From an uncultured Planctomycetales bacterium (GTDB taxonomy: Bacteria; Omnitrophota; Gorgyraeia; Gygaellales; Profunditerraquicolaceae), in NCBI GenBank assembly GCA_964487475.1, contig CAZAPM010000001.1, forward strand, positions 12,374-76,373: DNA of 64,000 nucleotides, given 5' to 3'. The notes below the pieces were generated by a model, which was given only the letters and a program-made list of their open reading frames with translations, was not told the DNA's origin and made no database searches. Shown here one piece after another: positions 13,019 to 59,338 of the stretch (positions are counted from its first letter, which is position 1; the number at the start of each line of letters is the position of its first letter). Both the position numbers and the translations under genes were made by a program.

Positions 13019-16000
13019 ATGCCCTTACGTTATCCTTCCCTGAGAAGCCTGATCGTCCTGCTTTCGCTTTGCGCGTGCTGCCTCGGCATTCCCGTGTTCG
13101 TGAGCGCGGCGAACGATATCTTCGTGGCGGCGAATTCCACCTGGAAGTACGATGATACGGGTACGGACCGGGGCACGGCCTGGTTCAACGCCTCGTATGA
13201 TGATTCCGCCTGGCCTTCGGGCGCCGGACAGTTCGGGTACGGTGACGGAGGAGAAAGCACGCTTTTAGGGTATGGCCCCGACGCAAACAACAAATACCCC
13301 ACCTATTATTTCCGCAAGTCGTTCAACGTGGCCAATGCCGCCCTCTATTCTGACCTGATCTTCTCGTTGTTGAGGGATGACGGCGCGGTCGTCTATCTTA
13401 ACGGGGAAGAGATATACCGGGATAATATGCCGGGAGGGGCGGTGGGTTATTCTACCCTTGCTTCCTCTGCGGTCGCCGGCGCCGCCGAATCCACGTATTA
13501 CGTCTTTCCCTCCATCCCTACGAACCTGGTCTCCGGGACCAACGTGCTGGCAGTGGAGGTCCATCAGAACGTCGTTACCAGCAGCGACCTGAGTTTTGAT
13601 TTCAAGCTCGAGGGCACGCTCGGGGAGGTGAACGTGAGCGCGTATACCACCGGGACTCCGTCGCTGCCTCCGGCATCGATCACTCCCGGCAACGGCAGGG
13701 CCCTGGCGACCTTCCGCTTGACGGGAGCCGGCCCGCTGACCGGGATCATCGTTTCCGAATACGGGACCGTGGACGCGGATACGGATCTCACGTCGGTGAA
13801 GCTTTATTCCGATGACGGCGATGGGAACTGGGAACCGGCTTCGGATACCGTGCAGTTGGGCAGCACCACTTCGTTCTCTTCGCAAGCCGCATCCTTCAGC
13901 GGGTTTACGCTCATCGCCGGAAGCACGACGTACGTGCATGTGGTGGCGGATGTGCAGAATTCCGTAGCTGACGGCGAAACGGTCGGGCTGCGCATCGTCC
14001 AGGCCAGCGACGTGACGACGGCGTTCCCCGTGTCTGCGAGCTCCTGGCCGGTGTCGGCCGGCACTTCGCCGGTGCTGCTGGACGCGATCTCCCTGCAGTC
14101 GTATTCGGGAGGGACCCCGGCTATGCCGCCGGCCACCCTGCCGGCGAACGCCACCCGGCAGTGCCTGTCCACGTTCTATTTCAGCGGCGGGGGCAACCTC
14201 CTGGGGATGAACTTCACCGATTACGGGACCAGCAACGTGACCGCGGACCTTTCCAACGTCACGCTCTATCTGGATGACGGGGACGGGAACTGGGAATCGC
14301 TGCAGGATACCACGGTGCTCGGCGCGGCGACTTCGTTTAACGCAGCCGAGAAAGCGTTCTTTTCCGGGTTCAACGTCACTTTGCCAGAAGATGCCTATGT
14401 GCATGTGGTCGCCGATGTCGCACAGGATATCCTGAAGAACCAGACAGTCAATATCGGGATCAACGCGGCAGGGGATGTCATCGCGTCCGATGACATCGCC
14501 TCGGCATCCTGGCCGTTGCAGGCGGGTGCGTCCAGGTTGATGGGGATCTATCCCTACCTGCAGAACGTGACCACGTCCACCATCAACGTGCTGTGGATCA
14601 CGGACGATGCCTTGAACACCACGTTGGAGTACGGTCTTACCTCTTCGTACGGCACTACGGTTACCGACGCTTCTGGAGTGACGCTGCACAGCGTCAATCT
14701 TACCGGATTGCAGACGGACACCAAATATTACTATCGCGTAAGGTCGGGGGATATGGTCAGCCGGGCCGCTTCCTTCAAGACCGCGCCTGCTTCGACCAGC
14801 GGGTTCACTTTTCTGGCGTACGGGGACAGCCAGGGGACCGGCACGGGCTCCGGCTACAATACCCTGCACGAGTCGGTGGTCAACGCCACGCTGCCGTACG
14901 CGAACAATACCATCGTCCTGCGGATGGGGGACCAGGTCTTTGCGGAATCCATCGATGAGTGGGAGCCGAAGTTCTTCCTGCCGGGACGCAACCTTTACAG
15001 CAATAATACCGCGTACCCGGCGCGCGGCAACCATGAGGAGGGGGCGGCATTGCTGCAGCAGTACTTCGCGCCTCCGGCAGTGGGCGGGTCCGGCAGCGAG
15101 CGGTACTACTCCTTCAATTACGGCAATACGCACTTCGTCTGTCTGGATACCAATCAGGCGCATAATTCCGGCAGCGCGCAGTATACCTGGCTGGTATCCG
15201 ACCTCGATTCCGCGGCCGCCACGTCCGCTACCTGGATCGTGGTGTGGTTCCACCATCCCGGGTTATCCTCCTACCGGGAGGATGCCGTGGTCAAGAGCGA
15301 TCTCCTGCCCTTGTTCGAGAGCAAGGGAGTGGATATCGTGTTCAACGGGCACAACCATTTTTATGAACGTCATAATAAGGACGGGGTTTACCATGTGACG
15401 TGCGCGGGAGGCGGCAACACGCTTTATGCCACGGATGACTCCGCCACTACCGCGTACCGGGAGAATTACCGCAGTACCCTGCATTTCCTGAAAGTCGAGA
15501 CGGGCGCTTCCCAGATGCAGGTGACCGCGTACGATACGAGCGGCGCGGCATTCGATTCTTTCGTGGTGCCCCGGAGCACGACGGTCTCCGCATACGGCTC
15601 CGGCACTCCGGCGGCGCCGCCCGCCAGCGTCGCCGCGGGCTCGGCGGCCAACTGCCTGGGGACGTTCCTTTTCGGGTCCGGTGGGACAGTCTCTGCCGTC
15701 ACCCTGACCGAGTACGGTACCGCAAACGCCGCCGCCGACCTTTTGAACGTAAAACTTTTCCTCGATGACGGAGACGGGAACTGGGAACCGGCGCAGGATA
15801 CGACCCAGCTGGGCGCGACCACGGTGTTCGATGGTTCCTCCCAGGCTTCCTTTTCCGGATTTTCCCTGGCTGCCGGCCCGACATCGTACGTGCATGCGGT
15901 CGCGGACGTTTCCGCATCCATTTCTTCCGGTGTTACTATCGGCGTCGAATTGCTGCAGGCTTCCCATGTGACCTCTACCGCGACGGTCCAGGCTGCGGCC

Positions 16001-19000
16001 TGGCCGGTGCAGCTGGGTACGACCAGTCCTTCGGCCGGGACCATCGATACGCCTGCCGCCGCCAGCGTGGTGGGTCCTTCCCCCACCATCACCGGTACGG
16101 CTGCTGCCGGATCTGCCGTGACCCTGCAGGACGGAGGGGGCACTCCCCTTGGCAGTACCACTGCGGACGATAACGGGAATTTCCGCCTGGCGGTGACCGC
16201 TCCTTTAGGGGCGGGCGCCCGGACCCTGCGGCTTTTCGTGAACGGAGTGGAGAAGGCCTCCGTCAATGTCGTGGTCGATCTTTCCCCCGATGCTGACGAG
16301 CAGCCGGTGATCACTTCTCCGGCGGATGGTGACACGGTAAGGGGAAAGCGCCCGGTGATCTCCGGCATGGCGACGCCCGGCGCGCTGGTCACGCTGACCG
16401 CGCTGGACGTCAACGGCAACCTGACGACGATGGGCACTGCCACCGCCGATGCTTCCACCGGCGCGTTCGCCATCACTCCTTCAAGCGACGTGCCGGCAGG
16501 CGCGAACCAGCTGACAGTGACCTGCAACGGCGTCACCAGCACGGTCATCGACGTGATCTTTACCGATCCTTTCGGCGTGGTGTTCGATTCCCTGAGCAAC
16601 GCCCCCATTGCCGGCGCCCGGGTCACGATCTATTACGACAGCGATCCCGGGGCAGGCCGGACGTGGATCCAGGCGGTGCCGGGAGTGCATATCGCAGGCG
16701 GCGACCTTAACCCGCAGACCACCAATGCCGCCGGCCAGTACAGTTTCCTGACCATTGACGGCGATTTCTACATCAGCATCACCGCTCCCGGATATACGTA
16801 CCCTTCGGTGCGCACGTCATTCCCCGCCGGCCGCGTCATCGTCAACGGGTCCAAGGGAGAGATCTTTACCGTAGCCGGGGTGGTCATCGAGATGGACCAC
16901 CCCATGGACCCGGGAAGCGCGCTGCTTAAGGTGCGCAAGGACGCGAACAAGAAGGAAGCGCACGTCGGCGATATCGTCACCTATACGGTGGAGGTGGAGA
17001 ATCCCACCGCGTCCGCCGCCGCGGGAGTATATCTCGAGGACCGCATCCCTCCGGGGTTCAAGTACATCGGTGGCAAATCCTTGCTGGACGGGGCGCAGGC
17101 GCCTGATCCGCAGGGCACTTCTATCCTGACCTTTTCCGTAGGCACCGTGCCGGCGCTGTCCAAGCGCACGCTTAAATATCAGCTGGTCGTGGGCGCGGGG
17201 GTGAGCTTCGGGAAATACGAGAACCATGCCCACGCCAAGTACCTGGACGGCACCACTGTGTCCAACGTCGCGGATGAGACGGTCAAGGTCGTCCCTGACG
17301 CGCTTTTCGATATGGGCACGGTGATCGGCAAGGCGTTCTATGATACCGACGGTAACGGGATGCAGGATAAGGGCGAACCCGTCGCTCCCTATGCCCGCAT
17401 CGCCATGGAGGACGGCACGCTCATCACTGCCGACGCGGAAGGCAAGTTCCACGCGGCCGGCATACTTCCCGGCAGGCATGTGTTCAAGATCGACCCGGCC
17501 AGTCTTCCTCCCGGGACGGCAGCGCAGGAAGGCGCTCCGGTGATCGTGGATATCACCCCCGGGATCATGGCCAAAGTGAATTTCCCGCTGCAGGGAACAC
17601 CTGCGGGGGACCTGTGGCGCATCGACCGCGGGATCCCGAAGCCCCGCTTGAGCGTGGGGATCTACCAGGATGCCGTGGTGTACCGTAAAGGCGCTCCGGC
17701 TGAGCAGCATGTCTTCCGGGTGTTCACCAATTATCCCGCGTTCATCGAGCGCTGGCAGCTCGATATCCGCGATACGCACACCGGCGCGCTGGTCCGCAGG
17801 CTGGAGGGCCCGGGAGACGATTTGCAGCGGCCGCTCCCCTGGAACGGCCTGGATTCTTCCGGCAGGATGCTGCGCAGCGACAGGGAGTACACCTATCAGC
17901 TGGCGGTGTTCGGCGCATCGGGAGAGAGGGATGTGACCGGGGCCAAGGCCCTGCGGGTGATGGAGCAGGAAGGCCCGCAGACCGCCGATGCCCGGGTCGA
18001 CCTGGATTCCTTCATGGTCGAAGCGAAAAAACGCAAGGAGTACTTCTCCCGGGTCGCTTCCGCCAGCAGTCTTTCCGAGCAGCGCATCCCGCTTCCGGGC
18101 GAGGCCTTGACGGTCCGCGTTCCGCATGCGGCCGATGCGCAGGTGTACGTCGGCGGGTTCTCCGGCCGGGAGCTGACGCTGGAGGCTTCCGAGGGGGTGG
18201 CCGAGACCATCCTGCCCAAGGGTGTATACCAGGTCTCTTCCGGGGATGCGCAGCCGCAGGTGATAAGCGTGGGTGACGACCCCTTCTTCTTTGTGGCCAT
18301 GGGAGACGGGAAGGTCGGATATAATTTCAACCGCGGGCACGTGGAGCCCATCGAACGCAATGACGCCTACCAGAAAGGATTCTGGAAAGAGGGCCGGGTG
18401 GCGTACTACCTCAAGGGTAAGGTCAAGGGCAAGTACCTGATCACCTCCAGCCTGGATACGGCACGGCAGCAAAAGGAGCTTTTCAAGTCGCTCGACCCCA
18501 ACAAGTATTATCCCGTGTACGGAGACGCTTCGAGCACCAGTTACGCGGCGGCGGATACCCAGGGCCCGTTGTACCTGCTGGTGGAGTGGGATAAGTCCTC
18601 TGCGGTCTGGGGGAATTACCACACCCGGATCGACCGTACCGAGTTTGCGCGGTTCGACCGCACCCTCTACGGAGGGAAGGTCGATTACGAATCTACGGCC
18701 ACCACCAAATTCCAGGAGCCGGTGACCAGGGCGGTCGGGTTCCGGGCCACTGCCAAACAGCGCGCCGGCCACAACGAGTTCCTGGGCACCGGAGGTTCCT
18801 TGTATTATCTTAAGCACCGCGGAGTGATAGAGGGGTCGGATAAGGTGCGTATCGAAGTGCGCGATTCCGTGACCGGCCTGGCGGTTTCCAGCCGGCAGGC
18901 GGTGAGCGGCAGCGATTACCGCATCGATTATGCCCAGGGCCGGATCGTCTTCGAGAAGCCCGTGCAGATGCTGGCCGCTTCCAACGCCCTGATCTCTTCC

Positions 19001-21085
19001 CGGTTGTCGGCGGGGGATGCGGTGTACGTGGTGGCGGATTACGAGTATGAGACCAAGGACAAGTACGATCAGACCACGCACGGAGGAAGTCTCCAGCAGG
19101 CGCTGGGGGACCATCTGCAGGTGGGAGCGACCTATGTCAAGGAAGCGCAGCTGAACCGCAACTACGTATTGAAGGGAAGCGACGCCACCGTGCACCTGGG
19201 GGAGAGGAGCCGTATCACGGCGGAGTATGCGGAATCGGAATCGGAGGCGGCAGGGAATTTCGTTTCCACCGACGGAGGGTTGAGCTTCAGCGAGCTGGCG
19301 GTCGCCGACCGGGATAACGGCAGGGCCTACGGGATCAAAGGGTACGCCCAGGTGCTCGATACGCTGGGAGTGAGCGGGTATTATAAGCTGATCGAAAAGG
19401 GCTTTTCCTCGTCCGCGGTCCTGGCGCAGCAGGGCAAAGAACTTGCCGGTGCGGAAGCGGCCTGGGATATCGATCCCCGTACCCGCCTGCTCCTGCGCCA
19501 TGACGTGCAGAAGCTCAAGCCCGAAGCTAATCTTCAGGCGAAGGCGCAGGTGGGGGCCCAGGAGACTTCGACCAGTTCCGTGCAGGTCACCAGACAGGTG
19601 GATGCGCGGCTGAAGGTAAGCGCCGAAGCCCAGCATCAGGAGGTGGCGCAGCGCGATGCCTCGTATGAGTCCGAGACGAACAGGGAGGGCAGCGCCGCGG
19701 CGGTGCGGGCGGATTATAAGGTCACGGAGACCCTGGATGTGTTCCTCAAACAGCAGGAGCAGCTCAAGGGAAAAGCCGACCACCGAACCACGGTGGGAGC
19801 GCAAAAACAGGTCTCCCCGAATACCCGGGTGCGCGCGGCGCAGACGGTAGGTAACCGGGGTACCGCGTCAAGCGTCGGCACTACCTCCCGGATCAGGGAG
19901 GCGCTGGAAGTGTCCGCCGATTACGAGCACCAGCAGTACCGGGCAGGGGATATCCGGGATACGGCGTCGGTGGGCACCCGGCTCCAGGCCGATCCCCGCA
20001 CCGAAGTGCGCACCTCCTATGCGCTGGAGAGCTCCGCGCTGGAGGGGGACCTGCAATCCCTGACCGTGGGGTCGCGGCGCAAGGTCAACGACCGCATCGC
20101 GGTCAAGAGCGACCGCACCTTCTCCACCGGCCGCCACCGGACCGTCACTTCCTCGCTGTACGGGCTGGAGCGGGAACAGGACGGCCTCTTCCAGGAGGCG
20201 TCCTTCGAGACCCAGGAATCCTTCGGGAATACGGGAGAGTACCGCAGCAACATCGCTTCGGTCTCGGGGTCCCTCAGCGAGAAAGTCTCCGCCGGGGTGA
20301 GTTTTGAGAAGGGAAAGATCCAGAATCTTGACGGGAGCCAGCAGCAGCGGTATGCCGCTTCTACCGGCGTGACGTATCTGGAAAAGGACCCCCGGACCCA
20401 GGAGACGGATTTTAAGACGGCGCTGAAGGCGGAGGTGCGTCTGGACCGCGGGGATACCGATACCCGCCAGTATCTCGCGGGAGCGCATGTGGAAAAGAGG
20501 GTGACCAGGGACCATACCGTGTTCCTCAAATCCGAATACTCGACTTCCCGTAACACCACGGGGGATTATTCCCTGGCCCAGTATAAGGAGTTCGTGGCGG
20601 GGTTCAGTTACCGCCCGGTGGATTTCGACAGGTTCAATTTCCTGGGGAAATATACCTATCTAATCAACGACGGACACCTGGGCCAGGAGGATTACCGGGA
20701 CGTGCTCAAGGAAAGGGCGCAGGTCTGGGCCGGGGAAGCGGTGTATGACCTCACTCCGCAATGGCAGATCACGGAAAAGCTGGCGATCCGGCAGGCGCAG
20801 GAGATGGTCCGGGGGTTCGATTTCACCAAATCCACCACCTGGCTTATGGTGCACCGTTTGAGTTATACCGTGGCCAAGGTCTGGCGGTTCGGGATCGAGT
20901 ACCGCCGGCTTTCCCAGGACCAGGCGGACGATTGCCGGCAGGGGATCCTGGCCGAGATCGCCCGCAAGATCGACAAATGCATCGAGATGGGGATTGGGTA
21001 CAACTTCACCGATTTCAACGATGACCTCGCCCACCTGGATTATACCAGCCAGGGACCCTTTGTGCGCGTGACCGGAGGCTTCTAA
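13019..21085 (+). CDS. giant secreted multidomain surface protein (2688 aa): jelly-roll N-domain, 3x ~145-aa Ig-like repeats, purple-acid-phosphatase-like metallophosphoesterase, DUF11, SdrD-B-like domain, C-terminal predicted beta-barrel
   Basis: The signal peptide is MPLRYPSLRSLIVLLSLCACCLGIPVFVSA. Metallophosphatase motifs GDSQG, GDQV, GNHE and GHNHFYER are present. A DUF11-like segment reads HVGDIVTYTVEVEN and an SdrD-B-like segment reads FYDTDGNGMQDKGEP. The C-terminal ~900 aa has an amphipathic Y/R/D/T-rich pattern and ends in an aromatic residue (TGGF). Confidence 0.7.
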   Translation: MPLRYPSLRSLIVLLSLCACCLGIPVFVSAANDIFVAANSTWKYDDTGTDRGTAWFNASYDDSAWPSGAGQFGYGDGGESTLLGYGPDANNKYPTYYFRKSFNVANAALYSDLIFSLLRDDGAVVYLNGEEIYRDNMPGGAVGYSTLASSAVAGAAESTYYVFPSIPTNLVSGTNVLAVEVHQNVVTSSDLSFDFKLEGTLGEVNVSAYTTGTPSLPPASITPGNGRALATFRLTGAGPLTGIIVSEYGTVDADTDLTSVKLYSDDGDGNWEPASDTVQLGSTTSFSSQAASFSGFTLIAGSTTYVHVVADVQNSVADGETVGLRIVQASDVTTAFPVSASSWPVSAGTSPVLLDAISLQSYSGGTPAMPPATLPANATRQCLSTFYFSGGGNLLGMNFTDYGTSNVTADLSNVTLYLDDGDGNWESLQDTTVLGAATSFNAAEKAFFSGFNVTLPEDAYVHVVADVAQDILKNQTVNIGINAAGDVIASDDIASASWPLQAGASRLMGIYPYLQNVTTSTINVLWITDDALNTTLEYGLTSSYGTTVTDASGVTLHSVNLTGLQTDTKYYYRVRSGDMVSRAASFKTAPASTSGFTFLAYGDSQGTGTGSGYNTLHESVVNATLPYANNTIVLRMGDQVFAESIDEWEPKFFLPGRNLYSNNTAYPARGNHEEGAALLQQYFAPPAVGGSGSERYYSFNYGNTHFVCLDTNQAHNSGSAQYTWLVSDLDSAAATSATWIVVWFHHPGLSSYREDAVVKSDLLPLFESKGVDIVFNGHNHFYERHNKDGVYHVTCAGGGNTLYATDDSATTAYRENYRSTLHFLKVETGASQMQVTAYDTSGAAFDSFVVPRSTTVSAYGSGTPAAPPASVAAGSAANCLGTFLFGSGGTVSAVTLTEYGTANAAADLLNVKLFLDDGDGNWEPAQDTTQLGATTVFDGSSQASFSGFSLAAGPTSYVHAVADVSASISSGVTIGVELLQASHVTSTATVQAAAWPVQLGTTSPSAGTIDTPAAASVVGPSPTITGTAAAGSAVTLQDGGGTPLGSTTADDNGNFRLAVTAPLGAGARTLRLFVNGVEKASVNVVVDLSPDADEQPVITSPADGDTVRGKRPVISGMATPGALVTLTALDVNGNLTTMGTATADASTGAFAITPSSDVPAGANQLTVTCNGVTSTVIDVIFTDPFGVVFDSLSNAPIAGARVTIYYDSDPGAGRTWIQAVPGVHIAGGDLNPQTTNAAGQYSFLTIDGDFYISITAPGYTYPSVRTSFPAGRVIVNGSKGEIFTVAGVVIEMDHPMDPGSALLKVRKDANKKEAHVGDIVTYTVEVENPTASAAAGVYLEDRIPPGFKYIGGKSLLDGAQAPDPQGTSILTFSVGTVPALSKRTLKYQLVVGAGVSFGKYENHAHAKYLDGTTVSNVADETVKVVPDALFDMGTVIGKAFYDTDGNGMQDKGEPVAPYARIAMEDGTLITADAEGKFHAAGILPGRHVFKIDPASLPPGTAAQEGAPVIVDITPGIMAKVNFPLQGTPAGDLWRIDRGIPKPRLSVGIYQDAVVYRKGAPAEQHVFRVFTNYPAFIERWQLDIRDTHTGALVRRLEGPGDDLQRPLPWNGLDSSGRMLRSDREYTYQLAVFGASGERDVTGAKALRVMEQEGPQTADARVDLDSFMVEAKKRKEYFSRVASASSLSEQRIPLPGEALTVRVPHAADAQVYVGGFSGRELTLEASEGVAETILPKGVYQVSSGDAQPQVISVGDDPFFFVAMGDGKVGYNFNRGHVEPIERNDAYQKGFWKEGRVAYYLKGKVKGKYLITSSLDTARQQKELFKSLDPNKYYPVYGDASSTSYAAADTQGPLYLLVEWDKSSAVWGNYHTRIDRTEFARFDRTLYGGKVDYESTATTKFQEPVTRAVGFRATAKQRAGHNEFLGTGGSLYYLKHRGVIEGSDKVRIEVRDSVTGLAVSSRQAVSGSDYRIDYAQGRIVFEKPVQMLAASNALISSRLSAGDAVYVVADYEYETKDKYDQTTHGGSLQQALGDHLQVGATYVKEAQLNRNYVLKGSDATVHLGERSRITAEYAESESEAAGNFVSTDGGLSFSELAVADRDNGRAYGIKGYAQVLDTLGVSGYYKLIEKGFSSSAVLAQQGKELAGAEAAWDIDPRTRLLLRHDVQKLKPEANLQAKAQVGAQETSTSSVQVTRQVDARLKVSAEAQHQEVAQRDASYESETNREGSAAAVRADYKVTETLDVFLKQQEQLKGKADHRTTVGAQKQVSPNTRVRAAQTVGNRGTASSVGTTSRIREALEVSADYEHQQYRAGDIRDTASVGTRLQADPRTEVRTSYALESSALEGDLQSLTVGSRRKVNDRIAVKSDRTFSTGRHRTVTSSLYGLEREQDGLFQEASFETQESFGNTGEYRSNIASVSGSLSEKVSAGVSFEKGKIQNLDGSQQQRYAASTGVTYLEKDPRTQETDFKTALKAEVRLDRGDTDTRQYLAGAHVEKRVTRDHTVFLKSEYSTSRNTTGDYSLAQYKEFVAGFSYRPVDFDRFNFLGKYTYLINDGHLGQEDYRDVLKERAQVWAGEAVYDLTPQWQITEKLAIRQAQEMVRGFDFTKSTTWLMVHRLSYTVAKVWRFGIEYRRLSQDQADDCRQGILAEIARKIDKCIEMGIGYNFTDFNDDLAHLDYTSQGPFVRVTGGF
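13636..14070 (+). repeat. intragenic repeat unit 1 (~145 aa Ig-like module) of giant protein
   Basis: SAYTTGTPSLPP...LYSDDGDGNWEPASDT...YVHVVADV...SWPVSAGTS. Approximate boundaries. Confidence 0.5.
14098..14535 (+). repeat. intragenic repeat unit 2
   Basis: GGTPAMPPATLP...LYLDDGDGNWESLQDT...YVHVVADV...SWPLQAGAS. Diverged copy of unit 1. Confidence 0.5.
15587..16030 (+). repeat. intragenic repeat unit 3
   Basis: SAYGSGTPAAPP...LFLDDGDGNWEPAQDT...YVHAVADV...AWPVQLGTTS. Third diverged copy, located after the phosphatase domain. Confidence 0.5.
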
Positions 21086-50996: not shown

Positions 50997-51832
50997 TCGT
51001 GCGCAGCGTCCCTCAGATGGCGGGGATCGGGCAGAGGCTGAAGCGGTCGGGCACGCGCGTGGGGTTCGTGCCGACCATGGGAGCGCTGCACGATGGGCAT
51101 GCCAGTTTGATACGCCGCAGCCTTAAGGAGATGGATAAGACCGTCGTAAGCATCTTTGTCAACCCGGCGCAATTCGCTCCGGGCGAGGACCTGGCCAAGT
51201 ACCCCCGGGTATTTCCGCAGGATGCGGCGCTTTGCCGGAAGCTGGGTGTCGAGTACCTTTTCTGTCCGACCGCGGAGGGGATGTATCCGCAAGGGTACGG
51301 TACGTTCCTGGAGGTAGAGGGGGTAAGCGCCGTCTTGTGCGGAAAATACCGTCCCGGTCATTTCCGCGGGGTAGCCACGGTGGTGGCGAAACTGTTCAAT
51401 ATCGTCGCGCCTGCCGCGGCGTACTTCGGCCGGAAGGATGCGCAACAGGCGTATATCGTGACGCAGGCGGCGCGGGACCTGAATTTCTCTTTATCGGTGC
51501 GCATCTGTCCGACGGTAAGGGAGGCGGACGGACTGGCGATGAGCTCCCGTAACCGGTATCTTTCCCCTCAGGAGCGGATCCGAGCGAGTGCGTTGTATCA
51601 GGCGCTGCGCCATGCAAAATATCTGGTCCGCGCGGGAGTGAGGGATGCCGCGACCGTAAAGAGGCAGATGTGCTCCCTGCTGCGCCGGGTTCCCGGTCTC
51701 AGGGTCCAGTATGCGCAGCTGGTCGATCCCCGGACATTCCTTCCCGTCAGGGATATCGATGCTCCCTGTCTGGCGCTGCTGGCGGCATACGTAGGCAAGA
51801 CCCGGTTGATCGACAATATGGAGATCGCATGA
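50990..51832 (+). CDS. panC: pantoate--beta-alanine ligase
   Basis: Start trimmed to MVIVRS. VGFVPTMGALHDGHASLI (HIGH-like motif) and the FGRKDAQQ region. Confidence 0.9.
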   Translation: MVIVRSVPQMAGIGQRLKRSGTRVGFVPTMGALHDGHASLIRRSLKEMDKTVVSIFVNPAQFAPGEDLAKYPRVFPQDAALCRKLGVEYLFCPTAEGMYPQGYGTFLEVEGVSAVLCGKYRPGHFRGVATVVAKLFNIVAPAAAYFGRKDAQQAYIVTQAARDLNFSLSVRICPTVREADGLAMSSRNRYLSPQERIRASALYQALRHAKYLVRAGVRDAATVKRQMCSLLRRVPGLRVQYAQLVDPRTFLPVRDIDAPCLALLAAYVGKTRLIDNMEIA

Positions 51833-52644
51833 AAACGCGGGTGGGAGTGGTCGGGTGCGGGGCGATCGGCAGTTCGCTGGCGATGCTGGTGGCCCGGAAA
51901 ATGCCCGGGATGCAGGTTTCCCGGGTATTCGACCTGGAAGCTTCCAAGTCCGTTACGCTTTCGCGCAGGCTTTGCGGGTCGGCGCGTCTGGCTGCGGGAA
52001 GCCTGGAGGCAGTGGTTTCCGCAAGCGATATCGTGGTCGAGGCGGCCTCCGCCCGCTGCAGCGCGGCGATCGCCCGATCGGCACTGCAGGCGGGAAAAAG
52101 CGTCCTGGTGATGAGCGTCGGAGGGATCCTTGCCGCCGCGCCCGGGCTGCAGAAACTGGCGCTGCGCACCGGAGGCAGGCTGCTGGTCCCCAGCGGCGCA
52201 GTGGCTGGTATCGATGCCCTGAAAGCCATGCGCTGGGTGAAGGTGTCCAAGGTCGTGCTTACCACGCGCAAGCCGGCGAAGGCGTTCGCGAATGTGCGGC
52301 TGCCTTCCGGGAAGACGGTGGATGCCGCCTCTATAGGGAAGGATACGGTGCTTTTTGAGGGGAGCGCCCGGGATGCCGTGCGGTATTTCCCCCAGAACAT
52401 CAACGTCGCGGCGGTGATCGCCCTGGCCGGGATCGGCGCCGGCCGCACCCGGGTGCGTATCGTGGCTTCCCCGGGGTTGAAGCGCAACGTGCATGAGGTG
52501 CAGGTGACGTCGGCTGCCGGCGTGCTCACCGCGGTGACGGAGAACGCGGTGCATCCGGATAATCCTAAGACGAGTTTTCTGGCCGTGCTTTCCGCGGCTG
52601 CGGCGCTGCAGGGGCATACGGCCCCGATGCGCGCCGGGTCGTGA
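51829..52644 (+). CDS. nadX: L-aspartate dehydrogenase family protein (NadX-like)
   Basis: Start trimmed to MKTRVGVVGCGAIG, with ATGA overlap onto the panC stop. Blocks VPSGAVAGIDAL, LFEGSARDAVRYFPQNINVAAV and NPKTSFLAVLSAAAAL parallel Thermotoga NadX. Confidence 0.75.
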   Translation: MKTRVGVVGCGAIGSSLAMLVARKMPGMQVSRVFDLEASKSVTLSRRLCGSARLAAGSLEAVVSASDIVVEAASARCSAAIARSALQAGKSVLVMSVGGILAAAPGLQKLALRTGGRLLVPSGAVAGIDALKAMRWVKVSKVVLTTRKPAKAFANVRLPSGKTVDAASIGKDTVLFEGSARDAVRYFPQNINVAAVIALAGIGAGRTRVRIVASPGLKRNVHEVQVTSAAGVLTAVTENAVHPDNPKTSFLAVLSAAAALQGHTAPMRAGS

Positions 52645-52689
52645 CGCAGTTGTATCAAAATCCAAAACAGGAAGGGGGTGAACAAAACT

Positions 52690-52932
52690 ATGGCAGAGAA
52701 GGTCGCAAAAGCGGGTATCAAGCGGGAGAAAGGGTACCTTTATTACCTTGACAAACAGGGTGATGTCTCTTGCGCGAAGATGGCCCGGGGCGATAAGAAG
52801 GGTGGCAGCCCCAAGAAATGCGTGAAGTTGGGCATCAAGCGTAAGGAAGGGTACCTCTATTTCATCGACAAGCAGGGTGATGTTTCCTGCGCCAAGATGA
52901 AGGTCGGCGGCAAAAAGAAGAAAAAGAGATAA
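52690..52932 (+). CDS. small Lys-rich protein built from a tandemly duplicated ~33-aa motif
   Basis: GGAAGGGGG RBS 10 nt upstream. The motif G-I-K-R-x-K-G-Y-L-Y-(Y/F)-(L/I)-D-K-Q-G-D-V-S-C-A-K-M occurs twice. Poly-Lys C-terminus. Confidence 0.45.
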   Translation: MAEKVAKAGIKREKGYLYYLDKQGDVSCAKMARGDKKGGSPKKCVKLGIKRKEGYLYFIDKQGDVSCAKMKVGGKKKKKR

Positions 52933-53016
52933 GCCGTCAGAGGTCGTGGCCCCTGCATGCATGAAGTGCGGTTGTGTGCAGGGGCCTACTTTTCGCGGTA
53001 TAACCGGAACAGGTGG

Positions 53017-54843
53017 ATGATGGAGCGCAGAACTTCCTGGTGGCTGGCAGCGGCGGGGTTTGCCGCGTACACGGTCTTATTCTCCTTCTTCTGCGCCCAG
53101 AAGTACCGTTCATTCTCATATCATGATTTCGACCTGGCCGTGCATGCGCAGGGGATGTGGAACCTGCTGCACGGGTCGCTGCATAATTCCATCTTAAGCA
53201 TCCCGTATCTGGGCAACCACATGCATCTGATCATGTTCTTTGCGCTGCCCGTGTACGCGCTGTGGACTTCGCCGGTGGCATTATTGTTCCTGCAGACCCT
53301 GGCGCTGGGTGCCGCGGTGTTCCCTTTGTGGGCGCTCGCGCGCAGAAGGCTCGATGCGGGATGGGCGGCAGTGATCGCAGTCGCATATCTCCTGTATCCC
53401 GCGGTCGGCTACGTGAACCTTTATGAGTTCCACCCGCCTGCGTTTGCCGCGTTCTTCCTGGCGGTGATGTGGTATTATTTCTCGGTGCGGCGTTTTCTTC
53501 CTTTCCTGGCCGCTGCGGTGCTGTCGATGCTCTGTCAGGAGAATGTCTTCCTGGCAGTGGGGATGTGCGGGCTGCTGGCCTGGAGGCAGAAAAGGAGCGC
53601 GCGATGGATCGTCGCTCCGATCGCCTGTGCCCTCGCGTACGCTGCGGGATCCCTGGCGCTGATGGGGACACTCAACGGCAACACCGTGCAGTATCAGTCG
53701 CTCTACGGGCATCTGGCGGCGAACCCCGGCTGGGTGATGCGGCCGCAGGTCTGGCAGTATCTCTTCACGCTATTCCTGCCGCTTTCTTTCCTGCCCGTGC
53801 TGGGCGCAGGGGCGCTGTTTCCGGCGCTGCCTTTCTTCCTCCAGCACGCGCTTTCCCGGCGCCCGCACGAACTGATGATCTCCTACCATTATACGGCGGA
53901 AATGCTGCCGTTCATTTTCGCCGCGGCGATAGAGGGGGTGGCATTCCTTCGCCGCCGCCAAAGTTCCGGGAAGTCGCAGCGTATCCTGCAGGGATCGGTG
54001 CTGCTGGTGGCGGCAGGGGCGAACCTGTTCCTTTACGGCCCGGGTGGTAAGTTCCTCGCGCCTCCCCGGGTTGACGCGCGCAGCGCCTATAAGGAAGCAT
54101 TGGTGCGCCTGGTCCCCGAACATTCGTCCGTGGTCGCCACCTTCGATTTCCTCTCCCATCTGGCGCACCGGAGAGAGCTTTACTCTTTTCACCACCAGGT
54201 CACCGGATTGCATACGCTTTCCGACAAGCCTTTTGAGCTTCCCGGTGATCTGGAGTACGCGCTGATCGATTTCGACGACCGTATCACCTTCCTGGGGTTC
54301 TATACTCCGCAGCGGCATGAGGTGCTGGCGAAGTTCTTCCTCGGGTACGATTGGCGGGTGCGGGAGTATCGGGACACCGTGGTGCTGCTTTCCCGCGATG
54401 TCAACGATCCGCCGCTTTCCGGCCTGGTGCGCAAGGGGCAGACGGACCCCGCGAAGTCCGCTGTTCCCGAAGCGACCGTGGGAAAGGGCGCCTTCGCGCT
54501 CGCCTTTGCCCGGGTGAGCCGGGGAGCCGGGGGAAAGGTGTGGGATGTCGCGCTGCGCTGGGAAAGCCTGCGGCCGGTGGATAAGGATTACATGATGTAT
54601 TTCGAAGAGTGCGATCTTACCGGGCAGGTGCAGGCCAGGACGTATTTTCCGGTCGCGTACCGGATCTTTCCCACGCACACCTGGAAACCCGGGGAGTTCG
54701 TGGAGCAGCGCGTGCGTTTTTCCGTCTCTTCGCCGGCTGCGGCGAGGCTGCGCATCGGGTTCTATGATTACAATGACGGAGCGCTCCTGCCCGTGGACGG
54801 GGTGCAGGATGAGCTCGGGCGTTTTGAGCTGAAAGGCGAGTAA
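53017..54843 (+). CDS. DUF2079 family polytopic membrane protein (putative GT-C-like glycosyltransferase) with a large C-terminal soluble domain
   Basis: Start trimmed to MMERRTSWW (AGGTGG RBS). It has about 10 TM helices. An SYHDFDLAVHAQ motif lies near the first loop, as in DUF2079 proteins. Confidence 0.55.
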   Translation: MMERRTSWWLAAAGFAAYTVLFSFFCAQKYRSFSYHDFDLAVHAQGMWNLLHGSLHNSILSIPYLGNHMHLIMFFALPVYALWTSPVALLFLQTLALGAAVFPLWALARRRLDAGWAAVIAVAYLLYPAVGYVNLYEFHPPAFAAFFLAVMWYYFSVRRFLPFLAAAVLSMLCQENVFLAVGMCGLLAWRQKRSARWIVAPIACALAYAAGSLALMGTLNGNTVQYQSLYGHLAANPGWVMRPQVWQYLFTLFLPLSFLPVLGAGALFPALPFFLQHALSRRPHELMISYHYTAEMLPFIFAAAIEGVAFLRRRQSSGKSQRILQGSVLLVAAGANLFLYGPGGKFLAPPRVDARSAYKEALVRLVPEHSSVVATFDFLSHLAHRRELYSFHHQVTGLHTLSDKPFELPGDLEYALIDFDDRITFLGFYTPQRHEVLAKFFLGYDWRVREYRDTVVLLSRDVNDPPLSGLVRKGQTDPAKSAVPEATVGKGAFALAFARVSRGAGGKVWDVALRWESLRPVDKDYMMYFEECDLTGQVQARTYFPVAYRIFPTHTWKPGEFVEQRVRFSVSSPAAARLRIGFYDYNDGALLPVDGVQDELGRFELKGE

Positions 54844-54847
54844 AGAC

Positions 54848-56533
54848 ATGCAACAGGTGCATTGCGATCTCTGCCAGTCGAGTTACTATTCCGTGGTATA
54901 CGAGATCCCCGGTCAAGGTTCCCTGGATACCGCGCCGGCGTATAAGATCACCCGGGATAAAGTGCCGGGGGTGGGGATGCGGCTGGTCAAGTGCCTTAAG
55001 TGCGGCTTAGTCTACATGAACCCGCAGGCCGCGCCGGAGGCGGTCGAAGGGATGTACCGGCAGATGCAGGATGACGAGTACCTGGCGGAGGAGCGGGGAA
55101 GAAGGCTCTCCGCCCGGCGGATCCTGAAAAAGATCGGCCGCGTCAGGAAAGGCGGCAGGCTGCTGGAAGTGGGGTGCGCCACCGGATTCCTCGTCGATGA
55201 AGCGGGAAAAGCGGGGTGGGAAGCGCAGGGGGTGGAGGTCTCTCCCTGGGCGGCGCAGTGGGCTCGGGAGAAGCTCGGACTGAAAGTCACGCCGGGCACG
55301 CTCGAGCAGGCGCGATTCCCTTCGAACTATTTCGATGCCGTGGTGATGGTGGATGTGATCGAGCATCTGTGCGCTCCCCGGCAGGCGCTCACGGAAGTGC
55401 GCAGGATACTCAAACCCGACGGCGTGCTGTGCCTCAGCGCTCCCGATATCGAAAGCCTGATGAGCCGCATCCTGCGGGCGCGCTGGTGGGGGATCCAGCA
55501 TTCGCACCTGTTCTATTTTTCGCGCGCCACCCTTTCCAAGATGCTCGATGCGGCGGGTTTCAAGCCGCTGCGTTTCGATTCCCATGCCCGGGTGTTCAGT
55601 GTATCCTACTGGGGTGCCCGCCTGAAGCAGTACAGCGAAGGGGTGTTCCGTATCTTCGATCTGTGCACCCGCCTGGCGGGAAGGAAGGGTTCCCTGCTGA
55701 CCCTCAATTTCCGGGACCAGCTCGACTGTGTGGCGGTCAAGAAGCGCAGCCTGGCGTATCTCGAATCGGATGAGGAGCGGCCGTTATCCCCCGGAGGGCA
55801 GAGAAAAGCCAAGGTGACGGTGGTACTGCCGGCGTACAATGCCGCGAGGACGCTGGAGCGCACGGTCGCGGATATCCCCCGGGATGTCGTGGACCGGATC
55901 ATCCTGGTCGACGATGCCAGCCGGGACTCGACCGTAGAGGTCGCCAGGAAACTGGGCCTGGACGTCTTCGTGCACGAGAGGAACAAAGGGTACGGAGGCA
56001 ATCAGAAGACCTGTTATGACCGGGCGCTTCAGGCGGGAGCGGATATCGTGGTCATGGTGCATCCGGATTACCAGTACGATCCCACCGCCATCCCGGACAT
56101 GGTCGCGCCGATACTGCGGGGGGACGCGGATGCGGTGTTCGGTTCGCGCATGATGAAGGGGGGAGCGCTGGAGGGGGGGATGCCTCTGTGGAAGCACAAC
56201 GTCAACATCCTGCTTTCCGCCCTGGAGAACGTGGTGCTGGGGACGTACCTGACGGAGTACCACAGCGGGTTCAGGGCCTACAGCGCGCGGTATCTCAAGG
56301 CGGTGAACTACCGGGCGAACTCCGACGGTTTCGTGTTCGATAACGAGATCATCGTGCAGGGACTGCTGCATTACATGAAGATCGAAGAGGTGCCGATCAA
56401 GACCAGGTATTTCTCCGAAGCTTCGACCATAAAACCTTTGGCCGCGGTCTGGTACGGGCTGGGTATCCTGGGAGTGCTATGCCGGTACCTTTTGCACGTC
56501 AAGGGGATCGTACGGGTTTCGCAGTTCGAATAA
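54848..56533 (+). CDS. fusion: Zn-ribbon + class I SAM methyltransferase domain / family-2 glycosyltransferase (DPM1-like polyprenyl-phosphate sugar synthase) domain
   Basis: N-terminus CDLC...CLKCG and [15 protein letters not shown] (methyltransferase motif I). C-terminus [16 protein letters not shown]...VDDASRDST...HPDYQYD (GT2 DxD region) with a terminal TM helix. Confidence 0.7.
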
Positions 56534-56545
56534 AGGGCAAACCTT

Positions 56546-59338
56546 ATGGATGAGATCATAATCAGGGGCGCGCGGGAACATAACCTTAAGAACATCGATC
56601 TGACCCTGCCGCGTAACAAGCTTATCGTGGTGACGGGGCTTTCCGGGTCGGGAAAGTCCAGCCTGGCGTTCGATACCATCTATGCCGAAGGCCAGCGCCG
56701 GTATGTGGAGAGCCTCTCCAGCTATGCCCGCCAGTTCCTGGAGCAGCTGCAAAAGCCCCAGGTGGAGCATATCGAAGGGCTTTCCCCGGCTATCGCCATC
56801 GAGCAGCGCGGGGCGGGAGGCAATCCCCGCTCGACCGTGGCCACCCAGACCGAGATATACGATTACTTAAGGCTGCTTTTCGCGCGCATCGGCAAGGTCT
56901 ACTGTTACCAGTGCGGCCGGCCCATAGCGCGGCAGAGCGCGCAGGAGATCGTCTCTCAGGTCCTGAGATTCCCGCAGCCCTGCCAGGTGATGATCCTGGC
57001 GCCTATGGTGCAGGGCAAGAAGGGGGAGTACCGGGATATCTTCTCCCAAATACAGAAAGCCGGGTTCGTGCGCGCCAGGATCGACGGGAAGGTGTGCACC
57101 GCGGAGGATGCCCCGAAGCTGGATAAATACAAGGTGCACACCATCGAGGTCGTGGTGGACCGGATCAGGGCGGAGGCGGGGCAGAAGCAGCGACTGACCG
57201 ATTCCGTGGAAACGGCCCTGAAGGTCGGCAAGGGGCATGCGGTGGTGGCGGTGGAAGGGGGCAAGGAACATCTCTTCAGCGAGGAGTATGCCTGTACCTC
57301 CTGCGGGATAAGTTATGCGGAAGTCGAGCCGCGCACCTTCTCCTTCAATTCTCCCTACGGCGCCTGCCCCGAATGCAACGGCCTGGGCACGAAGCTCGAG
57401 TTCGACGAGGCGCTGGTAGTGCCTGATGCGTCCCGTTCGATCAACGAAGGAGCGCTCGAGCCGTGGAGGCGGGGTGGCAAGGGGTATATCATGTACTACC
57501 GCTGGCTGCTGCGGGAACTGTCCCGGGAGATGGGGTTTTCCCTGGATGCGCCCTTTAAATCCTTTTCCAAGAAGACCCGCAAGTCCATCCTCTACGGTAC
57601 GGACGAGGTGGAGGTGGGGGATAAGCCTTTCGAGGGAGTGATACCCCATCTGGAGCGGCTATTCCGCCAGACGGAGAGCGATTACCTCAAGGAGGAGATC
57701 TCCAAGTATATGTCCACGCTTCCCTGCCCGGCGTGCGGGGGCGCCCGTTTGCGCAGGGAGAGCCTGGCGGTCAAGGTGCAGGGCAAGAACATCTCGGAAG
57801 TGACGCAGATGTCGATCAAGGACGCCGTGAGCTACTTTGCCGGACTGGAGCTTACGGAACGCGAACAGGCGATCGCCGCCCAGGCGCTCAAGGAGATCAC
57901 CCAGAAGCTGCGCTTCTGCGTCGACGTAGGGCTGGATTACCTCACTCTGGACCGCAAGAGCGCCACCCTCTCCGGGGGAGAGGCGCAGCGCATCAGGCTG
58001 GCCACCCAGGTCGGTTCCGGTCTGGTGGGAGTGCTCTACGTGCTCGACGAGCCAAGTATCGGGCTGCACCAGCGGGACAACGACAAGCTTATCGCCACGA
58101 TGCTGCGGCTGCGCGACCTGGGGAACACCATCATCGTGGTGGAGCATGACGAGTACACGATGCGCGCCGCGGATTATCTGGTGGACCTGGGCCCGGGCGC
58201 GGGAAGGCTGGGCGGGCATGTGGTGTGCGCCGGCCCGAGGGAGGAGTTCCTGCGCTGCAAGGATTCCCTGACCGCCCGTTACCTGCGGGGGGAGATCGTG
58301 CTGCCGGTCCCCGGACAGCGCCGGCCCTGGGAAGGCAGGCCCTGTCTCGAGGTCAAGGGCGCCAGGGCGCATAACCTGAAGGATATCGACGCGCGTTTTC
58401 CTTTGGGGACGTTCATCTGTGTGACCGGGGTCTCCGGGTCGGGAAAATCCACCCTGATCGACGATATCCTTTATAAGGCGCTGGCCCAGAAGCTGTACCA
58501 TTCCAAGGAACGGCCGGGCGCACATGCCCAGCTGAAAGGGGTGGAGCACATCGATAAGGTGATCGTGGTGGACCAGGCTCCCATCGGCCGCACTCCCCGT
58601 TCGAACCCCGCGACGTATACGGGAGTGTTCGCGCCCATCCGGGACCTTTTTTCCAAACTTCCCGAATCCCGGGCCAGAGGCTATAAACCGGGGCGTTTTT
58701 CCTTCAACGTGAAAGGCGGCCGCTGCGAGACGTGCATGGGCGACGGGATCAAGAAGATCGAGATGCACTTCCTGGCCGATGTTTACGTGAAATGCGATAT
58801 CTGCCGGGGGAGGCGCTTTAACGAGGCGACCTTGGAGGTTACCTACAAGGGTAAGTCCATCGCCGACGTGCTGGAGATGACGGTGGAGGAGGGGCTGGAC
58901 CTTTTTTCCAGCATCCCCCAGATCAGGCATACGCTTTCCTACCTGAACGACGTGGGTTTAGGGTATATCCAGATCGGCCAGGCCGCGACCACGCTTTCCG
59001 GAGGCGAGGCGCAGCGCATCAAGCTTTCCGCCGAGCTTTCCCGGCGCGCGACCGGAAGGACTCTCTATATCCTTGACGAGCCTACCACCGGGCTGCACTT
59101 CGCGGACGTGCAGAAGCTCATCGCCGTGCTGCAGCGCCTGGTGGATAAGCACAACACCGTGATCGTGGTCGAGCACAACCTGGAAGTCATCAAATCCGCG
59201 GATTACCTTCTGGACTTAGGCCCGGAGGGAGGGGACGCGGGGGGCAGGATCGTCGCCGCCGGAAGCCCCGAAGAAGTGGCGCAGGTGAAAGCCTCCTTTA
59301 CCGGCGCGTTCCTGCGAAACGTATTGAAGAAGCAATGA
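56546..59338 (+). CDS. uvrA: excinuclease ABC subunit A
   Basis: Two ABC modules ([20 protein letters not shown]; LSGGEAQR twice) and the CxxC zinc-finger insertions. Confidence 0.95.

Follow-up and report, generated by a model that had tools for sequence, protein, structure and literature searches.

To our knowledge, characterised GT-C enzymes use polyprenyl-phosphate sugars as donors. The SAM-dependent methylation of polyprenyl-linked glycans at the cytoplasmic face of the membrane has precedents in the Haloferax volcanii enzyme AglP and in WbdD, from E. coli O9a. AglP acts on dolichyl-phosphate glycans and WbdD on undecaprenyl-diphosphate glycans; both substrates are oligo- or polysaccharides, and neither enzyme is fused to a Dpm1-like synthase.

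Three-component periplasmic glycosylation (Mann & Whitfield 2016; Kelly et al. 2024, PMC11127046) combines a polyprenyl-phosphate glycosyltransferase of the GtrB type with a flippase of the GtrA type and an enzyme of the GT-C class. The GT136 enzyme ORF12 presents a GT-C layout with an extra beta-rich periplasmic C-terminal domain past TM11 (Kelly et al. 2024, PMC11127046). In the PpgS (Rv3631)/Rv3632/Rv3779 system of mycobacteria and corynebacteria, which concerns the GalN of arabinogalactan, the lipid-linked sugar is deacetylated between the step of the synthase and that of the membrane transferase on the outer side (PMC9671496).

The locus considered here consists of two genes on the forward strand of a 64-kb stretch of DNA (the window, i.e., the whole stretch that was analysed), which probably comes from an uncultivated member of the Omnitrophota, judging by the names of its best homologues. 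It resembles the three-component systems in that a membrane-anchored family 2 glycosyltransferase (GT2) adjoins a polytopic protein of predicted GT-C fold, and also in its proposed logic, by which a lipid-linked monosaccharide donor would be made inside and used outside. Unlike these systems, it draws its GT-C protein from the uncharacterised DUF2079 family, it has a SAM methyltransferase fused to the GT2, and the D-x-D-x-Q motif of the GT2 is replaced by H-x-D-x-Q. The pair also lies among housekeeping genes (dapA/B, panC, uvrA), not in an O-antigen or phage locus, and the local context therefore gives no hint of the acceptor. A further difference is the lack of a flippase gene in the locus. 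A search for one (GtrA, SMR-like or UPF0104) found none in the window, in which every ORF of 90-200 aa has fewer than three transmembrane (TM) segments and the DUF2079 protein is the sole polytopic protein.

When the locus is set against the lipid A aminoarabinose pathway (ArnC/ArnD/ArnE-F/ArnT), the part of the modifying enzyme would here fall to the methyltransferase domain of the GT2 fusion, and the GT2 itself has a weak similarity to ArnC (E 1.8e-3). The likeness to the PpgS system lies in the combination of a polyprenyl-phosphate-sugar synthase with a membrane transferase that acts outside, and PpgS is the second-best NCBIfam match of the GT2 (1e-17), whereas the score of 64 bits falls far below the cut-off of 370 and the methyltransferase occurs only here.

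On the computed basis of folds, motifs, predicted topology, and conserved gene linkage, we read the two genes, with a probability of roughly 60%, as a module for periplasmic glycosylation in which a polyprenyl-phosphate sugar is the donor of a GT-C enzyme. The scheme itself is well known, and the fused methyltransferase and the DUF2079 protein are a new variation on it.

The DUF2079 protein

Both of the open reading frames claimed by the first-pass annotation are present, and the first of them (53017 to 54843; 608 aa) does belong to the DUF2079 family, as PF09852 matches residues 30-395 at E 1e-42 (147.3 bits, with a cut-off of 28.2). An alternative in-frame ATG upstream, at 52957, would give a protein of 628 aa, and a start at 53017 or 53020 is favoured because the homologues align from approximately residue 2-20 of the 608-aa version. 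Two antisense ORFs (51598-52962 and 53770-54849) were rejected as GC-rich artefacts, given that they have no family matches and overlap well-supported genes.

The protein is a predicted GT-C-fold glycosyltransferase. Its polytopic nature had been correctly recognised, with a count of about 10 TM helices that is now revised to 11 and a C-terminal domain of 300 aa that is now reduced to approximately 268 aa (residues 341-608). In the AF2 model (pLDDT 93.7), the polytopic fold can be superimposed on those of solved GT-C enzymes, in agreement with the fold that had been anticipated, and the topology predicted by the positive-inside rule places the N terminus in the cytoplasm and the C terminus in the periplasm.

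As in GT-C enzymes, the loop that follows TM1, the first on the extracytoplasmic side, bears conserved acidic residues. Its motif YHDFDLAVH (residues 35-43; 53119 to 53145) is predicted to lie in the periplasm between TM1 and TM2. D39 is invariant in 59 sequences, while D37, F38, D39, L40, and A41 are all invariant among 21 closer ones. Together with H43, which is nearly invariant, D37 and D39 form a candidate catalytic or metal-binding acidic motif of the type that is typical of GT-C enzymes. The other invariant polar residues, i.e., E137/H139, Q174/E175/N176, S280/R282, and H291/Y292/E295 (53425 to 53901), which were taken from the invariant columns of the broad and closer alignments, are all predicted to lie in loops on the periplasmic side. 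The C-terminal periplasmic domain (residues 341-608; 54037 to 54840) is made up of an alpha/beta part with a conserved LYSFHH, followed by a beta-sandwich, and the protein thus resembles the GT136 enzyme ORF12 in having an extra beta-rich, periplasmic domain past TM11. From the adjoining DPMS-like GT2, we infer a polyprenyl-P(P) donor for this protein.

The DUF2079 family is large, with 7,955 clusters (at 50% identity) matching at E up to 1e-3, and none of the NCBIfam models matches the protein of the window. No source for the earlier proposal of DUF2079 as a GT-C was found in the searched literature library, in which the term DUF2079 is absent from the papers and PF09852 appears as a list entry only. 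Literature searches on GT-C enzymes, DUF families, and Omnitrophota returned nothing specific.

The fusion protein and its methyltransferase half

The second gene (54848 to 56533; 561 aa) was described as starting 5 nt later, and this holds, with the stop codon of the DUF2079 gene ending at 54843, a spacer of 4 nt, and the ATG at 54848. A scan for promoters and terminators yielded counts at or under the shuffle expectation. The protein is composed of a Zn ribbon, a class I SAM methyltransferase, a DPMS-like GT2, and a C-terminal TM helix, an architecture that had already been proposed and that is borne out by HMM matches and hydropathy. The prediction places its entire soluble part in the cytoplasm.

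On the other hand, the methyltransferase is no unusual embellishment, as had been supposed, given that the fusion is not rare. Homologues are found in more than 120 database clusters, nearly all of them full length, at 94-100% query coverage and with a 54-63% identity that is conserved across Omnitrophota, and the pair formed by a methyltransferase and a GT2 recurs in several phyla. ORFs so long, with such HMM scores and with homologues in the hundreds, lie far outside what chance would give.

The Zn ribbon contains C6, C9, C49, and C52 (54863 to 55003; TIGR02098, 22.9 bits against a cut-off of 20.9). Across 47 sequences, C9, C49, and C52 do not vary, and the conservation of C6 is 90% or higher. 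The Methyltransf_23 SAM-binding domain spans residues 87-240 (55106 to 55567; PF13489, 90.9 bits against 27, E 9.6e-26) and includes the SAM motif I LEVGCATG (55157-55189), with G109 and G113 invariant. The methyltransferase half is joined to the GT2 half by a linker (residues 305-320; 55760 to 55807) that is modelled with low confidence, with a pLDDT of approximately 50 at residues 311-320 and below 50 at residues 314-317.

Compared with the NDP-hexose C3-methyltransferases TcaB9/KijD1/MtmC, the methyltransferase half has only 18% identity, and it departs from the three-domain architecture of TcaB9, in that the sugar-nucleotide-binding C-terminal domain, which we take to be Pfam Methyltransf_14, is absent and a short segment plus the GT2 is found instead. 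Its distant stand-alone relatives are located in polysaccharide gene clusters, and the methyltransferases that are separate or reverse-fused bear TM helices of their own, which suggests that the substrate is bound to the membrane.

The similarity of the methyltransferase half is generic, however, in that its best PDB sequence matches are the uncharacterised methyltransferases 3cc8 and 3l8d, and that UbiG and the phosphoethanolamine and phosphatidylethanolamine N-methyltransferases match it too. These matches, together with the missing substrate-binding domain and the four loci in which a stand-alone methyltransferase, with no fused GT2, follows DUF2079, would also fit a reading in which the GT2 and the DUF2079 protein act as proposed, and the methyltransferase, instead of methylating the transferred sugar, modifies another substrate (a cofactor, a protein, the lipid carrier or the head group of a phospholipid) or has a regulatory or scaffolding role. 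We regard this reading as unlikely.

The glycosyltransferase half

The GT2 half (residues 322-520; 55811 to 56407) is a GT-A/GT2 catalytic domain of the Dpm1/DPMS type, which PF00535 matches over residues 324-484 (E 2.7e-21). Its best solved relative in sequence is the DPMS of Pyrococcus furiosus (5mlz; E 2.3e-12 over approximately 200 residues), with which it has in common VDDxSxDxT, GSRxxxGG, and SGF, plus the D and Q of DxDxQ. The corresponding stretches of the GT2 include the nucleotide motif DDASRDST (55910-55933, by alignment to 5mlz), GSRMMKGG (56141-56164), and EYHSGFRAY (56255-56281).

The segment VDDASRDST (residues 354-362) was mistaken for the DxD in the first-pass annotation, and it aligns with the nucleotide-binding VDDDSPDRT of the Pyrococcus DPMS. 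The true DxD position, which is DADLQ in DPMS, reads HPDYQ (residues 405-409; 56060-56074), with D407 and Q409 aligned to D91 and Q93 of DPMS. The GT2 does not, then, contain the canonical D-x-D(-x-Q), given that the first Asp is a His, and H-x-D-x-Q is present in 81 of the 81 family members examined. Owing to this substitution, the metal or donor chemistry of the enzyme may be different from that of DPMS.

The GT2 protein also differs from the Pyrococcus DPMS in having one TM helix instead of four, and an N-terminal methyltransferase module of 300 aa. The helix (residues ~527-551 by hydropathy and 530-551 in the model; 56426 to 56500) lies past the catalytic domain, as in the membrane-anchored enzymes of the Dpm1/DPMS/GtrB type, anchors the fusion to the membrane, and is conserved in the fusion family, including Y536 and G537. 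A single C-terminal TM anchor is also found in the yeast Dpm1.

The nearest relatives of the GT2, both in NCBIfam and among PDB sequences, are polyprenyl-phosphate sugar synthases and not polysaccharide synthases, in line with the initial assignment. In NCBIfam, AglJ (4e-24), PpgS, and the Dol-P-hexose transferase (2.8e-17) are placed far ahead of PgaC (2.9e-4), and in the PDB sequence search, DPMS is placed ahead of chondroitin synthase (1.9e-5). The scores are far under the curated cut-offs, i.e., 85.5 against 325 bits for AglJ (TIGR04182), 64.3 against 370 for PpgS (NF058614), and 62.4 against 375 for the Dol-P-hexose transferase (NF041391), and the GT2 is therefore an orthologue of none of the three.

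In the Foldseek comparison of the GT2 half, soluble GpgS enzymes are placed above the membrane polyprenyl-P transferases, with glucosyl-3-phosphoglycerate synthases as the best glycosyltransferase matches (E ~1e-11), and the NCBIfam model PRK13915 (GpgS) matches at 7.9e-11. If the GT2 were a GpgS-like enzyme with a soluble acceptor, it would produce a small glycoside (e.g., glucosylglycerate) for subsequent methylation, in a manner comparable to the initiation of the mycobacterial methylglucose polysaccharide, and its adjacency to DUF2079 would be meaningless. This is highly improbable, given that, at the sequence level, DPMS and AglJ match far better than GpgS (2.6e-3), that the conserved C-terminal helix is a membrane tether, that polytopic membrane neighbours are enriched, and that the DUF2079 linkage holds in 51 of the 58 informative loci.

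Conserved gene linkage

That the two genes are linked in function had been concluded from adjacency alone, and a neighbourhood that is conserved across lineages and rearrangements now backs this link. The linkage was counted in 79 metagenome loci of this DUF2079 subfamily, found with the closer alignment set. The direct downstream neighbour of DUF2079 is a methyltransferase and/or a GT2 in 35 of these loci, while 16 more have a GT2 no more than 3 kb away, and seven have room for one but none, which are the figures behind the overall linkage given above.

The pair formed by DUF2079 and the fusion is found between unrelated flanks, and the arrangement of its parts varies. For example, a fusion in the reverse order (GT2::MT) fills the slot between DUF2079 and uvrA in two loci (L101 and L113), and its GT2 is 40% and its methyltransferase 23% identical to those of the fusion in the window; judging by these sequences, MT::GT2 and GT2::MT are two independent fusions. 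The Rokubacteria have MT-GT2-DUF2079 as separate genes, and the Chloroflexota and Methylomirabilia have GT2-DUF2079. Of the five loci from Omnitrophota genomes whose upstream sequence is long enough, only two have the fusion next to DUF2079. Chance adjacency was rejected, as the linkage persists through different flanks and gene orders.

In the broader GT2 family, a polytopic membrane protein is encoded no more than 2.5 kb downstream in 50 of the 63 loci, as against 19/55 and 11/50 in the control intervals. The neighbours recognised by Pfam are PMT_2, PMT, GT87, YfhO, and PTPS_related, which, from the Pfam clan grouping, are presumably all of the GT-C type, or else the predicted flippase UPF0104.

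UPF0104 proteins are proposed phospholipid translocators and are found together with glycolipid synthases; one example is the GpgS/D/F system of Pseudomonas, which makes GlcN-phosphatidylglycerol. In the related Chloroflexota loci, a GT2 of the same family is adjoined and followed by a UPF0104/LPG_synthase_TM gene, not by a GT-C. This arrangement would be expected if the GT2 glycosylated a glycerolipid (phosphatidylglycerol, diacylglycerol) or some other non-polyprenyl lipid, with the methylated glycolipid as the end product, and if the DUF2079 protein acted otherwise or independently. However, the GpgS of the Pseudomonas system is a GT4 and not a DPMS-like GT2, the closest characterised relatives of the GT2 are all enzymes that act on polyprenyl or dolichyl phosphate, and the persistent pairing with GT-C-fold proteins fits a polyprenyl-P-sugar donor. 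We thus consider a glycerolipid acceptor to be quite unlikely.

Proposed mechanism

In the periplasmic glycosylation module preferred here, the GT2 of the tail-anchored fusion would move a monosaccharide from a nucleotide sugar to polyprenyl phosphate at the cytoplasmic face of the membrane. The TcaB9-like methyltransferase domain would methylate this sugar, more probably on the lipid-linked product than while it is still a nucleotide sugar, and in either case before export, because SAM is cytoplasmic. A flippase encoded outside the locus would then bring the (methyl-)sugar on its lipid to the outer leaflet. There the GT-C-fold DUF2079 enzyme, whose conserved polar residues (Asp, His, Glu, and Arg) are predicted to face the periplasm, would hand the sugar to an envelope acceptor, with LPS or some other glycan of the envelope as the foremost guess. 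The C-terminal periplasmic domain of the DUF2079 protein probably aids the binding of this acceptor.

A more specific version of the mechanism is put forward tentatively, as possible rather than probable. In this version, DUF2079 would be a distinct GT-C family of approximately 8,000 clusters, whose donor is a pre-methylated polyprenyl-phosphate O- or C-methyl-hexose, provided by a dedicated bifunctional methyltransferase/H-x-D-type synthase, in a conserved housekeeping modification of the envelope in Omnitrophota and several other phyla. The sugar might also be a heptose, which is considered because of a GmhB::GT2 fusion in one locus (L068). We know of no earlier description of a pre-methylated lipid-linked monosaccharide as a class of donor.

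Implications

If the reading as a glycosylation module is true, it would provide the first concrete, testable function for the large DUF2079 family, and the two genes are small enough for reconstitution in E. coli. The H-x-D-x-Q motif marks a widespread GT2 subfamily, which, across phyla, is the apparent donor-making partner of several families of GT-C enzymes. Should the methyltransferase act on a lipid-linked or nucleotide sugar, methylated sugars would reach extracytoplasmic glycans via a monosaccharide carrier. Finally, for the uncultivated phylum Omnitrophota, the pair points to a feature of the envelope that is conserved.

Two adjacent genes and their surroundings

The DUF2079 gene (53017-54843, + strand) encodes a protein of 608 aa and is followed, after a 4-nt spacer, by the fusion gene (54848-56533, + strand), whose 561-aa product combines an N-terminal zinc ribbon (CxxC...CxxC), a Methyltransf_23 domain (residues 87-240), a GT2 domain (residues 324-484) and a single C-terminal hydrophobic helix (residues ~527-551). 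An alternative in-frame ATG at 52957 would lengthen the DUF2079 protein by 20 residues; the shorter form is preferred, given that homologue alignments begin at about residue 2-20 of the 608-aa form. The nearest homologues are from Candidatus Omnitrophota MAGs.

The flanks are of the housekeeping type, i.e., dapA, dapB, an aminotransferase, panC, aspartate dehydrogenase and a small 84-aa ORF upstream, and uvrA (56546-59338), a TPR protein and exbB/tolQ downstream. As all of these are densely packed on a single strand, the adjacency of the pair within the window alone provides little information.

The 84-aa ORF (52678-52932, + strand), immediately 5' of the DUF2079 gene, has a Lys-rich tail and two copies of a unit of ~23 residues, GIKREKGYLYYLDKQGDVSCAKM and GIKRKEGYLYFIDKQGDVSCAKM, and yielded no Pfam or NCBIfam match; L165, another copy of the contig, likewise has a gene called at this site, of 80 aa. 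Elsewhere in the window, a giant ORF of 2,688 aa (13019-21085, + strand) with purple-acid-phosphatase/metallophosphatase, bacterial Ig-like and DUF11 domains presumably encodes a surface protein.

The DUF2079 protein

The protein matches Pfam DUF2079 over residues 30-395 (147 bits, E 1e-42), with no NCBIfam match and no sequence match in the PDB, and the family comprises 7,955 clusters (50% identity) at E <=1e-3, or 521 at E <=1e-30. Hydropathy, the model helices and the K/R distribution together indicate 11 TM helices and a cytoplasmic N terminus, which places the positive clusters 108-111, 157-159, 190-196 and 312-322 on the predicted cytoplasmic side, and all of the invariant polar residues on predicted periplasmic loops. 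These include the motif YHDFDLAVH immediately after TM1 (D37/D39 invariant, H43 nearly so), as well as H68, E137/H139, Q174/E175/N176, R282 and H291/Y292/E295. GT-C enzymes, the fold class of polytopic membrane glycosyltransferases, are recognised by an acidic active-site motif in their first outer loop, and the DUF2079 protein is predicted, from its model, to be one of them.

An HMM of its C-terminal periplasmic domain also matches the C-terminal parts of other GT2-adjacent polytopic proteins (L055:7810-10671, L063:8826-10865 and L063:11012-13072), one of which, PTPS_related-like, carries the domain in two copies, and this domain may thus be a module common to several GT-C families.

The GT2 half of the fusion

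The top NCBIfam matches of the GT2 domain are AglJ (4e-24), PpgS (1e-17) and the haloarchaeal Dol-P-hexose transferase (2.8e-17), all far under the equivalog cut-offs, while the polysaccharide synthases reach 1e-4 to 1e-7. Its best solved sequence relative is the Pyrococcus dolichyl-phosphate mannose synthase, DPMS (PDB 5mlz; 2.3e-12), with chondroitin synthase, ArnC and GpgS behind, so that the domain groups with the polyprenyl-phosphate-sugar synthases. That the sugar is instead placed on a glycerolipid acceptor is less likely. A GpgS-like reaction on a soluble acceptor would agree with Foldseek, in which soluble GpgS enzymes come first among the glycosyltransferase matches, but it is at odds with both the ranking by sequence and the conserved TM anchor, and is also the less likely reading.

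The first-pass annotation described both genes and their domains correctly, although the "DxD" that it placed at VDDASRDST was mislabelled, since in a residue-level alignment this segment corresponds to the nucleotide-binding VDDDSPDRT of DPMS. The true DxD position, DADLQ in DPMS, reads HPDYQ in the fusion (56060-56074), and the DPMS signatures GSRMMKGG and SGF are matched. DPMS, GtrB and ArnC carry D-x-D-x-Q here, whereas H-x-D-x-Q occurs in 81/81 examined sequences of the GT2 family (the window and 80 further loci), as HPD[YHFN]Q or HADNQ; a sister group has HGD[GA]Q. This could serve as a family signature, and the change of D to H could reflect a different metal or donor chemistry. By its sequence, the GT2 half is thus predicted to be of the Dpm1/DPMS type, with a metal motif that has changed.

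The methyltransferase half

The methyltransferase half resembles sugar methyltransferases, without the third, substrate-binding domain of TcaB9; beyond this, the matches by sequence are unspecific. More distant relatives that stand alone (29-37% identity) occur in polysaccharide gene clusters, alongside genes for GT2, GT4, Wzy_C, WecG and deacetylases. A substrate other than the sugar is less likely.

Linkage across genomes

Scanning metagenome contigs with the DUF2079 alignment gave 79 loci, and in 35 of these the direct downstream neighbour is a methyltransferase and/or GT2 gene: 21 clear single-ORF methyltransferase::GT2 fusions, 12 methyltransferase-first neighbours (truncated, split or, in 4 loci, stand-alone) and two GT2::methyltransferase fusions. 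A further 16 loci have a GT2 within 3 kb, seven with room have none and 21 are uninformative, which amounts to linkage in 51/58 informative loci. The pair also recurs among wholly unlike flanks (TonB receptor, PFK). These comparisons support a functional link between the two genes, and an adjacency devoid of mechanistic meaning is less likely.

In two metagenome loci (L101 and L113), a reverse-order GT2::methyltransferase fusion lies between DUF2079 and uvrA, so that these distantly related loci share the gene order of the window although the domain order of the middle gene differs. Their DUF2079 proteins are only 37% identical to that of the window, the GT2 domains 40% and the methyltransferases 23%. 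This fusion lacks the zinc ribbon and has a TM hairpin after the methyltransferase; in other loci, the same reverse fusion lies upstream of DUF2079, divergently oriented. The existence of two independent fusions in opposite orders argues for a substrate shared by the GT2 and the methyltransferase.

In four loci (L102:3658-6128, L103, L105 and L118), the gene after DUF2079 encodes a zinc-ribbon methyltransferase (~300 aa) that stands alone, without a fused GT2; in L102 it is followed in turn by a PMT_2 GT-C. Linkage of the methyltransferase to DUF2079 may therefore last without an adjacent GT2.

Seen from the other side, a genome scan recovered the GT2 outside the Omnitrophota fusion as a stand-alone gene of ~245 aa with a TM helix (54-64% identical), in Acidobacteriota, Chloroflexota, Aminicenantes, Rokubacteria, Paceibacterota and one Bathyarchaeia MAG. 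Of the 80 GT2 loci, 27 have a methyltransferase gene directly upstream and 9 a fused one, and DUF2079 adjoins the GT2 in Chloroflexota, Methylomirabilia and Rokubacteria. A polytopic membrane protein is found within 2.5 kb downstream in 50/63 loci, against 19/55 and 11/50 in control intervals. Those recognised by Pfam are either PMT_2, PMT, GT87, YfhO and PTPS_related, which we take from the clan grouping to be GT-C-type families, or UPF0104/LPG_synthase_TM, a predicted flippase. The GT2 thus appears to be a hub that makes donors for several families of GT-C enzymes, which is consistent with the position of the fusion beside DUF2079 in only 2/5 Omnitrophota genome loci with enough upstream sequence.

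In nine loci, mostly from Chloroflexota/Limnocylindrales (L027, L046, L051, which is a Spirochaetia MAG, L060, L061, L066, L067, L077 and L080), the stand-alone GT2 is directly followed by a UPF0104/LPG_synthase_TM protein (MprF-type predicted flippase) in place of a GT-C.

A putative lipid-linked glycosylation module

The interpretation of the pair as a lipid-linked glycosylation module, advanced in the first-pass annotation, is backed by the two tests proposed there, on the DUF2079 fold and the GT2 grouping, and by comparative genomics. The best-supported reading is that the putative module follows the known polyprenyl-phosphate-sugar/GT-C scheme of the three-component systems of Mann & Whitfield, ArnC/ArnT, PpgS/Rv3779 and Dpm1/PMT. 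The tail-anchored fusion protein would make a lipid-linked monosaccharide at the cytoplasmic face, and the methyltransferase would act ahead of export, given that SAM-dependent chemistry is cytoplasmic and GT-C transfer periplasmic. The DUF2079 protein would then pass the sugar to an acceptor. No flippase gene was found near the pair in the 64-kb window. The methyltransferases of the reverse fusions and of L068, a locus of Omnitrophica bacterium CG07_land_8_20_14_0_80_42_15, have TM helices of their own, which favours a lipid-linked sugar over a nucleotide sugar as the substrate. ArnD is a precedent for the editing of a lipid-linked sugar before flipping. Another is the deacetylase of the PpgS pathway (PMC9671496).

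One lead on the sugar and the acceptor comes from L068 (7461-11738), where the orthologue of the GT2, 55% identical, forms a fusion with a GmhB-type heptose-1,7-bisphosphate phosphatase (176.4 bits, just under the cut-off of 178), followed by the zinc-ribbon methyltransferase and a PMT_2 GT-C. The cluster also holds a GT9 heptosyltransferase::GT2 fusion, a GT4, an MGDG-synthase-like glycosyltransferase and two carbamoyltransferases, an LPS-core-like context. Being a single locus, it gives no more than a hint that the sugar may be heptose and the acceptor the LPS core.

The logic of such a pathway is well understood; what is new here is that the predicted GT-C enzyme belongs to an uncharacterised family and the GT2 to a distinctive subfamily, and that a methyltransferase is recurrently fused to the latter.
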